A stretch of DNA of 64,000 nt, taken from positions 15,534 to 79,533 of the forward strand of contig CAZALI010000003.1 of NCBI GenBank assembly GCA_964486215.1, read 5' to 3'. Below, one piece after another: positions 49,290 through 51,965 of this stretch (positions within the stretch are counted from its first letter, which is position 1; each line of letters opens with the position of its first letter). A program made the position numbers and the translations under genes. The notes below the pieces were generated by a model. That model was not told where the DNA came from. It worked only from the letters and a program-made list of their open reading frames with translations, and did not search any database. This DNA comes from an uncultured Muribaculaceae bacterium (GTDB lineage Bacteria > Bacillota_I > Bacilli_A > RF39 > UBA660).

Positions 49290-50099
49290 CTATTTATTTT
49301 TATTCATATCTCTATAGTACAAATTCTTTTCTACTACTCTTTTTACATCTTCAGCATTAAATGGTTTAGTTAGCATATCTACAATACCATAAGTAAAAGC
49401 TCTATCAATAGTTTCTTTTGATGAATCTCCAGTTATAATTGATACTGGTGATTTTTTAAGCAAGTCTTTTTCTTTCATATAATCTAGTACTTTAAAGCCA
49501 CTTACTTTTGGCATATTTAAGTCTAATAGTATAGTTACTATTTTGTCATTTTCACTATTGGCTTTTAGTATATTAATTGCTTCTTCTCCATTTTCAGCTA
49601 TACCGATAGAATACTTATCACTAAATATTCTACTAACGAAATTTCTAACAATATTAGAATCATCTACTACTAGTATTGTTTCTTTTTTGTATATAGGTGC
49701 ATTTATGGTCATCTCTTCTTTTGGAGTAGATGTTTTATTATCATCTGATAAATATTCTTTTACTAAATTCTTAGATTTTGATACTAGAGTTTCTAATTCA
49801 TTAAAATGTTCAGTAATGTAGTAAGCATCATTAGATTTAGCTTTTAATTCTTGAGCATAGGCTACATCTGCTAAAGCAGTAAAACCAAAATATTTAGCAT
49901 CACTTTTTAGTGAATGAACAAAGATGGCATAGTTTTGCATGTCATTATTGTTTTTATACTTAGCTAATTTCTTTATTTTAGAATCTATACCAGTTAGAAA
50001 TTCTCCTATGGTATCGTTATAAGTATTAATATCTCCAAATATTTCTAAACTCTTGTCTATGTCAACCCCATTGGATTTTAAAAACTCTATATCCTTCAT
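49290..50099 (-). CDS. Hpt-receiver fusion protein (histidine phosphotransfer domain plus CheY-like REC, no output domain)
   Basis: The N-terminal four-helix region has the Hpt motif VHSLKSDAKYFGF. The C-terminal REC has ILVVDDS...LLDLNMPKVSG...TKP. Start at MKDIEF after RBS GAGGTG. Confidence 0.7.
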   Translation of the reverse strand: MKDIEFLKSNGVDIDKSLEIFGDINTYNDTIGEFLTGIDSKIKKLAKYKNNNDMQNYAIFVHSLKSDAKYFGFTALADVAYAQELKAKSNDAYYITEHFNELETLVSKSKNLVKEYLSDDNKTSTPKEEMTINAPIYKKETILVVDDSNIVRNFVSRIFSDKYSIGIAENGEEAINILKANSENDKIVTILLDLNMPKVSGFKVLDYMKEKDLLKKSPVSIITGDSSKETIDRAFTYGIVDMLTKPFNAEDVKRVVEKNLYYRDMNKNK

Positions 50100-50148
50100 A
50101 TCACACCTCAACTATTATAATTATATCATAATTATTTAAAATTTATAA

Positions 50149-51411: not shown

Positions 51412-51429
51412 GTTATCACTCCTAGTTTT

Positions 51430-51438
51430 ATTATACCA
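51430..51438 (-). promoter_or_regulatory. Extended -10 element for obg
   Basis: On the minus strand, TGgTATAAT about 20 nt upstream of the obg RBS AGGAG. The -35 is weak. Confidence 0.45.
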
Positions 51439-51503
51439 AAAAAATAAAAAATATAAAGTTATATTTTTTATAATTTATTTATTGAAATAATTAATAAATA
51501 TTA

Positions 51504-51532
51504 TTGTTTATCAAACATACTTTTGTTATAAT
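51504..51532 (+). promoter_or_regulatory. Plus-strand promoter for the hydrophobic mini-ORF
   Basis: TTGTTT (51504-51509), a 17-nt spacer, then extended -10 TGtTATAAT (51524-51532). Confidence 0.55.
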
Positions 51533-51592
51533 CAATTTGGAACACTTAACAGTGGGTGGTGCCTTCAGCATTATAAGACTGGAGGTGATATT

Positions 51593-51676
51593 ATGAGTAA
51601 AAAAGATTCTTTAATCTTTTCACTACTTTTTATCATAATCCTACTTATAATATTACTATTTGTAATATTTATGTAA
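51593..51676 (+). CDS. 27-aa hydrophobic peptide, candidate type I toxin or small membrane protein
   Basis: MSKKDSLIFSLLFIIILLIILLFVIFM*. Consensus RBS GGAGGTGA lies 5 nt upstream of the ATG. There is a dedicated promoter and opposing sRNA-like units. The ORF is below the track's length cutoff. Confidence 0.5.
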   Translation: MSKKDSLIFSLLFIIILLIILLFVIFM

Positions 51677-51776
51677 GAAAAACCACCTAACTCAGCATTG
51701 AATTAGGTGGCCACCATTAATTTGGCACCACTCAACATTGCAAATCAAGTGTTCATTTTGTAATTAAATTACATAC
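51677..51776 (-). ncRNA. Candidate antisense sRNA, copy 1
   Basis: Minus-strand unit containing a palindrome (51759-51773), a hairpin CACUUGA...UUGAGUG that closes with G-U pairs only on the minus strand, and a terminator stem CCACCTAA/TTAGGTGG (51683-51710) plus UUUUU. The terminator tail ends 1 nt past the mini-ORF stop codon (51674-51676). Confidence 0.5.
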
Positions 51777-51778
51777 TT

Positions 51779-51807
51779 ATATTAGCATATATCTAACTAT
51801 TTTTCAA
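51779..51807 (-). promoter_or_regulatory. Promoter of sRNA copy 1
   Basis: On the minus strand, TTGAAA (51802-51807), a 17-nt spacer, then TGcTAATAT (51779-51787). Confidence 0.55.
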
Positions 51808-51829
51808 TATTTGCATAATATTTAATACT

Positions 51830-51931
51830 AAAATAAATGAAGCACCTAACTCAACATTGAATTAGGTGCAAACCCATATGGTAGCACTTAACATGCGAAT
51901 ATTAAGTGTTCCTTTTGTAATTAAATTACAT
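51830..51931 (-). ncRNA. Candidate sRNA, copy 2 (tandem paralog; could also serve as the rpmA operon terminator)
   Basis: Same architecture as copy 1: TGcTATTAT -10 element at 51936-51944, palindrome at 51916-51930, hairpin CACTTAA/TTAAGTG, and terminator stem GCACCTAA/TTAGGTGC (51842-51869). The terminal pair of that stem is swapped C-G to G-C relative to copy 1. Confidence 0.45.
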
Positions 51932-51965
51932 TTTTATAATAGCATTTATATTACTATTTTTTAAG

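Follow-up and report, generated by a model that had tools for sequence, protein, structure and literature searches.

A predicted type I toxin–antitoxin-like module with an orphan antisense RNA in the rpmA–obg spacer of an RF39-type gut bacterium

What occupies the 554-nt gap between rpmA and obg on contig CAZALI010000003.1, within the 64-kb stretch of DNA analysed here (hereinafter designated the window)? An initial annotation had read this spacer as a type I toxin–antitoxin (TA)-like module, in which a hydrophobic 27-amino-acid (aa) open reading frame (ORF) is opposed by two tandem structured small RNA (sRNA) units. On following up that proposal by sequence analysis and comparison, we consider it probable that the spacer holds a chromosomal type I TA-like module of an uncatalogued family from RF39-type Bacilli, accompanied by an orphan antitoxin. 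Those parts of the proposal that can be tested on sequence are borne out: the ORF is conserved, and the element facing it looks like a structured RNA gene with its own promoter and terminator.

On the plus strand, a promoter, a Shine–Dalgarno (SD) sequence and an ATG precede a 27-codon ORF (Table 1), as originally annotated. The product would consist of a short polar KKD head followed by one transmembrane (TM)-length stretch of ~21 hydrophobic residues. The minus strand carries two units that repeat directly at a spacing of 157-159 nt, with 86% identity over 64 nt and 77% identity over 48 nt. Each unit closes with a terminator-like hairpin and T-run (51712-51681 and 51869-51842), two such hairpins compared with 0.3 expected by chance, and the core motifs occur nowhere else in the window (0.00 expected by chance). 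We designate the two predicted sRNAs unit 1 and unit 2, and their hairpins H1 to H4. The promoters, the 15-nt palindromes forming H1 (51759-51773 and 51916-51930) and the terminator hairpins (H4) had been located correctly. The inventory was one hairpin short, a fourth short hairpin (H3) between the internal hairpin (H2) and the terminator having been overlooked, and the ~100-nt size assigned to the tandem units holds for the predicted RNAs and not for the repeat period, which is ~158 nt with promoters included. Unit 1 is predicted to fold as H1-H2-H3-H4 with −31.3 kcal/mol and is, as proposed, fully complementary to the ORF 3' untranslated region (UTR).

Two features were used to place the ends of the putative toxin mRNA: the position of its promoter and a U-run that comes after H2', the complement of H2, across the family. 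At homologous loci, TGnTATAAT lies 5-7 nt upstream of a conserved GGAAYAY 5' end. On the toxin strand, H4' lacks a U-run, whereas downstream of H2' the sRNA's A-rich linker appears as its complement, CCUUUUUUAUU; the mRNA therefore probably ends after H2', which would probably give an overlap of ~90 nt with the sRNA at the 3' end. The ~100-nt sRNA is accordingly predicted to cover the mRNA 3' UTR up to the stop codon.

Is this arrangement peculiar to the window? A degenerate pattern drawn from both window units was scanned against metagenome sequences and found 21 loci in rumen and gut assemblies, one human-gut contig among them. The covariance search across relatives that the initial annotation had suggested, made here with a covariance model (CM) built on the unit cores, added four diverged units, one at L036, two at L064 and the second unit of L102 (L036 and L064 being loci of RF39-type metagenome-assembled genomes, MAGs). 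The 27 homologous sRNA units come from gut and rumen Bacilli of the RF39 type, where their chromosomal contexts are unrelated, and they share the order promoter, H1, A-rich linker, H2, H3 and terminator H4 with U-tract. The promoter TTGnnn-17-TGnTAtaAT is kept upstream of every unit and a terminator is present in each. H1 stems differ by locus (CAAG/CUUG, GAAG/CUUC, UAAG/CUUA, and UGUAAU/AUUACA in the window) and H3 is a CCNN…NNGG hairpin of variable sequence, seen in 19 of the 23 units folded singly; in both, pairing is maintained despite sequence change. The family H2 (GGAACACUUAAU…GUUGAGUGUUGCC) has two conserved G·U pairs, so that the minus-strand G·U pairs previously noted in the window are a property of the sRNA strand across the family. 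H4 takes the form NCACCUAAUUCA…UGAGUUAGGUGN followed by the U-tract.

In the model-built alignment of 26 units, 98.8% of the cells in paired columns are paired and compensatory changes affect 13 of the 22 pairs of H2 and H4 (10 of 12 in H4). None of 500 shuffles matched the observed pairing and covariation, and sliding the partner columns lowered the paired fraction to 30–40%. The closing pair of the terminator, whose substitution between the two window units had been cited in support of the structure, co-varies throughout the family (UA 10, GC 6, AU 4, CG 3, UG 2).

The family extends to the partner ORF. An intact convergent ORF of 24–33 codons with a strong SD and ATG faces 18 of the 25 assessable units, namely those of the window, 13 pattern-found loci and four diverged modules; the prospect, raised at the outset, of a generic repeat without an adjacent small ORF is thereby dispelled. 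The sRNA unit is always convergent to the ORF and overlaps its 3' UTR, and the ORF end lies 21–29 nt past the 5' arm of that unit's terminator. The peptides follow the consensus M[FSN]KKD[FL]LIFSLIILIFLLVLLLFIVLI (MxKKDFLIFSLIILIFLLVLLLFIVLI), with MTKREFSQFIIILLLFLVVIILLLK, MKTKTFFIKALKLITIILFLLIVMIVVIKK, MKKKDLLISFLILIIILLIVSLMILCIKK and MRKQEKYLTTIIILLIIVIMIILIKIVPTA as diverged forms. They consist almost wholly of I, L, F and V, without any conserved polar motif through which they might interact. In a set of 11 distinct 27-codon sequences, variable sites fall 19/9/21 on the three codon positions, the second being least variable, and single-nucleotide codon differences comprise 262 synonymous and 201 non-synonymous changes. 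This coding-type variation argues that the ORF is a coding sequence selected for hydrophobicity.

The same pattern bears on the notion of an RNA-only element, in which two convergent structured RNAs interact and the ORF stays untranslated. Strong constraints at the RNA level and an SD predicted to be mostly sequestered would suit it. Against it, all 18 intact modules have an ATG preceded at canonical spacing by a strong SD, the conserved second codon positions preserve hydrophobic residues, the length of 24-33 codons holds even between classes with diverged nucleotide sequences, and the ORF decays through frameshift or start deletion with the downstream sequence retained. We hold an RNA-only element to be highly improbable.

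In the other seven of the 25 assessable units, the ORF is lost or disrupted and the sRNA is apparently intact. Five of the seven still show a recognisable remnant or disrupted copy: an internal deletion at L083, a frameshift in an A7 run at L090, loss of SD and start at L092, a truncation at L098 and, at unit 2 of the window, ~15–23 nt of a …LILK* 3' end (51814–51836); at L095 and L101 the ORF is absent. Keeping the RNA after losing the peptide gene is the asymmetry expected of an antitoxin/toxin pair, and ORF decay of this kind is the behaviour expected of a putative toxin gene. The disrupted ORF of L090 (~1190-1320, opposite strand to the sRNA at 1125-1204) has its A7 run directly after ATGAGT and would read MSKKYLLILSLLVIIFILVLK with one A fewer; the frameshift may be genuine and inactivating, or it may be an assembly error in the homopolymer.

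Could the units instead serve the genes beside them? On that account they would be cis elements of the flanking operon (terminators or attenuators of rpmA, or a leader of obg) or a generic repeat, and the ORF a chance frame in AT-rich DNA. Unit 2 starts immediately past the rpmA stop codon, with its H4 as the first terminator downstream of that gene, AT-rich DNA readily yields hydrophobic ORFs, and the spacer itself is an insertion hot spot (see below). The homologous units, however, adjoin unrelated genes that vary by locus (gatC, a Sir2-type deacetylase gene, tRNAs and others) and not rpmA or obg, with L093 the sole locus to share any genes with the window; the module thus appears autonomous, with nothing specific to rpmA or obg about it. 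Moreover, the rpmA–obg spacers of 70 measured relatives contain no such unit, a promoter of its own accompanies every unit, the motifs recur nowhere else in the window, and the ORF is conserved with SD, ATG and coding-type variation. The comparative data largely refute a cis-element role, which we regard as very improbable.

The modules are patchy and multi-copy, some of them in tandem. At L102 (2050-2760), two complete toxin/sRNA modules lie ~390 nt apart, with identical H1 and A-rich linker and near-identical promoters, joined to unrelated H2-H4, 5'-terminal elements and toxins. This pattern suggests cassette-like or mosaic evolution, a conserved 5' handle having been combined with a variable targeting part. 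The window shows a similar mosaic, in which the promoter-plus-H1 parts of units 1 and 2 are 86% identical and the cores have diverged. In two other loci, tRNA genes stand directly upstream of the sRNA promoter (L064, 5427-5593; L093, 6078-6150), which may hint at tRNA-adjacent integration.

How might the toxin be held silent? The best-supported special feature of the family is a long-range closure of the modelled toxin mRNA. Sixteen modules conserve a 5'-terminal mRNA element (hereinafter designated T5) whose consensus, GGAAYAYUURAUAGUUGGGUGNUNCC, coincides with the predicted +1 of the mRNA. The element reproduces the two arms of the sRNA hairpin H2 without the loop, and can therefore pair with H2' at the mRNA's own 3' end. 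In the RNAalifold consensus of 12 full-length transcripts, 20 bp join the 5' end to the 3' end, the variation in T5 being wholly wobble-compatible (CG/UG, AU/GU), and the single-sequence minimum free energy (MFE) structures contain 18–25 closure bp in 15 of 15 full-length transcripts. The 5'–3' closure proposed for the window mRNA is thus predicted throughout the family and co-varies by module, and the 11-nt match between 51539-51549 and 51902-51912, reported with it, is exact.

Calculated T5:H2' duplexes of the 16 modules have 19–28 bp and −21 to −37 kcal/mol (22 bp and -29.1 kcal/mol in the window), compared with −1.5 to −5.7 kcal/mol for local hairpins of T5 and −1 to −9 kcal/mol for those of H2'. 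On the sRNA strand the H2 hairpin ranges from −6.6 (window unit 1) to −15.6 kcal/mol; in the window the corresponding value on the toxin strand is -3.3 kcal/mol, since the G·U pairs of the sRNA become A·C mismatches there. T5 changes from module to module (GGAUACAUUUGA… at L064a, GGGAAUAUCAG… at L064b, GGAAAUACUAAC… at L036, GGAAUAUCUAG… at L102a) and each version matches its own H2, yielding a diagonal-dominant energy matrix over five sequence classes (cognate −21 to −37, cross −6 to −22 kcal/mol). In the T5:H2' duplexes, Watson–Crick pairs number 370, G·U pairs 35 and C·A mismatches 2, counts that are phylogenetically non-independent and come from RNAduplex, which can hide mismatches in loops. 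Such an excess of G·U over C·A suggests selection acting at the RNA level, and not a drifting inverted repeat in the DNA. We also asked whether T5 and H2 might form the terminal inverted repeats of a mobile element and rejected this, the conserved promoters and H1 lying outside them and the mismatch spectrum being RNA-like.

The SD would be buried in addition. It falls within an 8-bp hairpin that is paired in the MFE structures, and its probability of being unpaired in the full-length mRNA is at most 0.24 in 13 of 15 modules. As for a direct contact with the initiation region, the non-overlapping 5' part of the sRNA pairs with it no better than shuffles do by RNAduplex (z -1.4 to +1.4, 13 pairs).

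These predictions can be assembled into a working scheme. The closed full-length mRNA would be a stable, poorly translated store with its 5' end hidden and its SD sequestered. The sRNA, self-structured through its G·U pairs, might dock on the less stable antisense hairpins of the 3' UTR, zip into a ~90-bp duplex and displace T5; in a calculated cofold, unit 1 and the toxin mRNA form a complete duplex with a gain of -106.8 kcal/mol, and T5 is released into a local hairpin. RNase III would then cut the duplex, and the freed 5' end would lie open to 5' decay. For as long as sRNA is supplied the toxin would remain unmade; should the sRNA drop, the peptide would be translated and the membrane damaged.

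A more specific version, which we put forward tentatively and think somewhat less likely than its negation, makes the antitoxin a mimic of the mRNA 5' end: H2 and T5 would compete for H2', strand displacement would open the mRNA to decay or silencing, and specificity would come from co-varying T5, H2 and H2' mounted on the conserved 5' handle of promoter, H1 and A-rich linker. If so, modules would be orthogonal even side by side in one genome, as at L102 and L064, and would constitute a natural programmable three-part RNA lock, undescribed for known type I families and the first such system in the reduced-genome RF39 lineage. The five naturally orthogonal sequence classes would then offer a start for synthetic RNA switches.

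Structural evidence of this kind would equally fit a peptide that is no toxin at all, such as a conserved small membrane protein (for example a transporter or envelope modulator) tuned by a cis-antisense RNA. The peptide matches no toxin family, and the modules are chromosomal: a search of a plasmid collection gave no match, two viral-contig scans did not find the module, and the sole phage hit is a 40-nt stretch between the units (51792-51831; 87.5% match, E = 9e-4) shared with 19 Streptococcus thermophilus phage records, which we judge to be chance because the stretch is AT-rich, so that a phage origin was set aside. What such a protein would leave unexplained is the loss of the ORF beside a retained sRNA in seven of 25 assessable units, the asymmetry typical of TA pairs, and the patchy, multi-copy, tandem and context-independent occurrence of the modules. 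The predicted layers of repression (buried SD, 5'-3' closure and a strongly promoted antisense RNA) and a peptide made almost entirely of I, L, F and V likewise speak for a toxin, and we consider a non-toxic membrane protein unlikely.

Several points weigh against a TA module of this design. The reading comes from sequence and its comparison, and transcripts, peptide and toxicity are all predictions. No terminator emerges on the toxin strand from a simple terminator scan, the hairpin formed by H2' is imperfect and the U-run of the window is just UUUU, all of which makes the mRNA 3' end uncertain. Because the search pattern prescribed parts of H2 and H4, the invariance of the 21 loci there is partly ascertainment, and the model-built alignment is biased to the structure of the model; for these reasons real covariation comes mainly from the diverged modules and the H4 closing pair, with about five diverged modules accounting for it in H2 and H4. 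The match between T5 and H2 could also owe something to concerted evolution of an inverted DNA repeat. L086 (2919-3211 region) is the sole member with an intact ORF and SD whose 5' UTR lacks T5. Finally, when the 3' UTR is blocked in mimicry of sRNA binding, predicted SD accessibility falls or stays low in the window (from 0.09 free to 0.02), L087, L089 and L093, and rises to ~0.6 in L091, L094, L100 and L102. An SR4-like closing of the SD by sRNA binding was rejected on this inconsistency across modules, and for the same reason we claim no translational effect of sRNA binding.

What, then, is unit 2? The initial annotation had set both units against the single ORF; we read unit 2 as the orphan antitoxin of a second, decayed module with a different toxin subtype, and not as a designed second copy. 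It abuts the ORF remnant, recognised by comparison with the ORF 3' ends of L092, L093 and L097, which has an in-frame stop upstream and neither SD nor ATG. The core of unit 2 is 73% identical to that of unit 1, each being closer to a unit from another metagenome (82% and 78%). With the toxin mRNA, unit 2 is calculated to form an imperfect duplex of 71 bp and -84.4 kcal/mol, the net cofold gain being -22.5 kcal/mol; since such a duplex with the toxin 3' UTR is still possible, unit 2 may act as an imperfect back-up antitoxin in trans, and it would also serve as a terminator after rpmA.

Among known systems, the putative module resembles type I TA pairs in having a small (<60 aa), hydrophobic, membrane-targeted peptide and a separate complementary antisense RNA, both transcripts being predicted. 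BsrG has 38 aa, compared with 24-33 aa for the peptides described here. TxpA/RatA, BsrG/SR4, BsrE/SR5 and YonT/SR6 left no trace of homology in Rfam (at the gathering threshold or at E<=10), Pfam or NCBIfam, and the peptide and RNA have no sequence or profile similarity to TxpA/RatA or BsrG/SR4. We know of no description of either of these two in which the 5' end of the mRNA repeats a part of the antitoxin and folds back onto the site that the antitoxin targets. The general layout is nonetheless theirs: in Gram-positive type I systems toxin mRNA and antisense RNA overlap at their 3' ends (PMC4147584, PMC8594479), by ~75 nt in txpA/RatA and ~120 nt in bsrG/SR4 (PMC4147584) as against ~90 nt here, and in all three cases the antisense RNA is not complementary to the region where translation starts. 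RatA works by way of RNase III and SR4 additionally remodels the ribosome-binding site (RBS) from a distance (PMC4147584); by analogy, RNase III cleavage of the duplex would be expected here, possibly with SR4-like long-range RBS remodelling. TxpA, with 59 aa (PMC4147584), is longer than the 24-33 aa of the present peptides, whose charged residues are N-terminal, and the RatA/SR4-type overlap enters the ORF (PMC8594479), whereas that predicted here stops at the stop codon and barely enters it.

Fst/RNA II (par of pAD1) shares convergent promoters, a hairpin common to both RNAs, complementary terminator loops and a small single-helix peptide of ~30 aa. In par RNA I, a 5' upstream helix (5'-UH) hiding the 5' end stabilises the toxin mRNA, and an SD-sequestering stem-loop is also present (PMC7472228); the likeness is one of analogy, with no sequence homology. 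The Fst signature (TM helix, conserved Trp, charged C-terminal tail, PXXXG; PMC7472228) is missing from the family peptides, which have no Trp, Pro or Gly motif and, in the main family, end in hydrophobic residues. DRa/DRb-type complementarity to the SD/start region is likewise missing, and that mode is ruled out because the sRNA 5' part pairs no better than shuffles; with both features lacking, membership of the Fst family was rejected. The sizes also differ, a terminator-only overlap and an sRNA of ~40-65 nt standing against ~90 nt and ~100 nt here.

The modelled closure finds its counterpart in hok/Sok and AapA1/IsoA1, where the hok fbi/tac elements and aapA1 give closed, inert full-length mRNAs by 5'–3' pairing (PMC4147584, PMC6733600), with the SD buried. 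Their antisense RNAs are encoded opposite the 5' region of the toxin mRNA and bind it only once its 3' end has been processed, whereas here the antisense RNA lies opposite the 3' arm of the predicted closing helix and mimics the sequence of the 5' arm. There is also no mok-like leader ORF, no Hok/Gef homology and no Pfam match here. The predicted wiring is thus unusual: an antisense RNA whose sequence repeats the 5' end of the mRNA and whose target is the 3' arm of the closing helix. The family is most likely a new type I TA family that joins the Gram-positive 3'-overlap layout with a hok/AapA-like 5'–3' closure.

Catalogues hold no entry for it in Rfam, Pfam, NCBIfam or PADLOC. At the Rfam gathering threshold, the window and six related loci gave no family for the units, and at E<=10 the spacer gave chance-level matches only (for example atoC, 18.9 bits against a threshold of 50). 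The peptide and 13 family members returned nothing meaningful from Pfam, NCBIfam and PADLOC. In a collection of 5.8 billion proteins, just 2 resemble a 58-aa version of the ORF, obtained by lengthening it artificially to an upstream in-frame TTG start. A literature search on the peptide motif and on type I TA in Mollicutes found nothing relevant, and we found no type I TA reported for uncultured reduced-genome gut Bacilli of the RF39/'Mycoplasma sp. CAG' type. Comparative support for this family is strong; new type I families are not rare. Type I TA systems escape standard annotation, which constitutes a blind spot, and the present family supplies a comparative set (27 sRNA units, 18 intact ORFs and 7 decayed ones) whose function is directly testable.

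Table 1 Features of the rpmA–obg spacer and its surroundings (window coordinates)
Feature	Position	Strand	Remark
Toxin mRNA promoter	51504..51532	plus	-35 TTGTTT (51504-51509), 17 nt, extended -10 TGTTATAAT (51524-51532); read from sequence
Predicted full-length toxin mRNA, ~220 nt	51539..51760	plus	T5, leader, ORF, H4', H3', H2', short U-run
T5, 5'-terminal mRNA element	51539..51563	plus	GGAACACTTAACAGTGGGTGGTGCC; conserved in 16 modules
SD-sequestering hairpin, 8 bp	51561..51586	plus	GCCUUCAG / CUGGAGGU; paired in MFE structures
SD	51581-51585	plus	GGAGG
27-codon ORF, putative toxin	51593..51676	plus	MSKKDSLIFSLLFIIILLIILLFVIFM; ATG at 51593
Predicted sRNA unit 1, ~102 nt	51672..51773	minus	putative cognate cis-antisense RNA; CM score 86.4 bits
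Unit 1 promoter	51779..51807	minus	TTGAAA-17-TG.TAATAT
H1 of unit 1, 5'-terminal hairpin	51759..51773	minus	palindrome UGUAAU-UUA-AUUACA
H2 of unit 1	51724..51755	minus	UGAACACUUGAU...GUUGAGUGGUGCC; G·U pairs on sRNA strand; plus-strand complement H2' is 3' partner of T5
H3 of unit 1, short hairpin	51714..51725	minus	CCAAAUUAAUGG; variable sequence
H4/H4', unit 1 terminator hairpin	51681..51712	minus	minus-strand U-tract reaches ORF stop codon; on plus strand also hairpin (H4') in toxin 3' UTR
Predicted sRNA unit 2, ~101 nt	51830..51930	minus	putative orphan antisense RNA; CM score 89.6 bits
Unit 2 promoter-like site	51936..51964	minus	TTAAAA-17-TG.TATTAT
H1 of unit 2	51916..51930	minus	TGTAATTAAATTACA; palindrome identical to that of unit 1
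H2 of unit 2	51880..51912	minus	GGAACACUUAAU...GUUAAGUGCUACC
H4 terminator hairpin of unit 2	51842..51869	minus	first terminator downstream of rpmA
Remnant 3' end of second putative toxin gene	51814..51836	plus	...LILK*, TAA 51834-51836; abuts unit 2
rpmA–obg spacer	51412–51965		554 nt; site of studied module
rplU, ysxB, rpmA	52869 down to 51966	minus	
obg	51411 down to 50149	minus	
Ribosomal protein L21 leader, RF00559	52885-52962	minus	37.4 bits, gathering score 36; upstream of rplU
Promoter-like site for obg	51430..51457	minus	TTTATA-16-TG.TATAAT; 10/12 matches; context, outside module

The locus itself is variable among relatives. Identical Obg proteins occur on ENA metagenome scaffolds; among species-representative genomes, the nearest Obg proteins (64–72% identity) come from MAGs of uncultured 'Bacilli', 'Tenericutes' and 'Mycoplasma sp. 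CAG:877', which we take to be the RF39-type gut lineage. In 70 measurable relatives (obg regions L003-L082, with obg starting at ~4001 in most), the rpmA–obg spacer ranges from 51 nt to ~3 kb, with 51-186 nt in 27 of them, and contains varied same-strand genes. Because both length and inserted genes vary, the spacer appears to be an insertion hot spot. Syntenic conservation of the module was rejected after blastn of the spacer against 80 obg loci of relatives returned AT-rich noise only, and analogous modules were sought in the relatives' spacers, where ordinary same-strand genes were found instead. In the window, the inserted module places two terminators between rpmA and obg, so obg probably depends on its own promoter. 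An AT-rich 18-nt inverted repeat (51439-51456 / 51459-51476) overlaps the promoter-like site of obg.

Besides the L21 leader, no Rfam family matches the window at the gathering threshold. The genes inserted in relatives' spacers include a conserved ORF of ~155-172 aa (L006, L013, L037, L048) and a zinc-ribbon membrane protein (MKLIEKTCPKCGANLEF...; L009, L050, L060). Directly downstream of obg in the window, a minus-strand gene (49290-50111) encodes a 273-aa product whose C-terminal half matches the response-regulator receiver domain PF00072; this gene is kept in the metagenome scaffolds with identical Obg.

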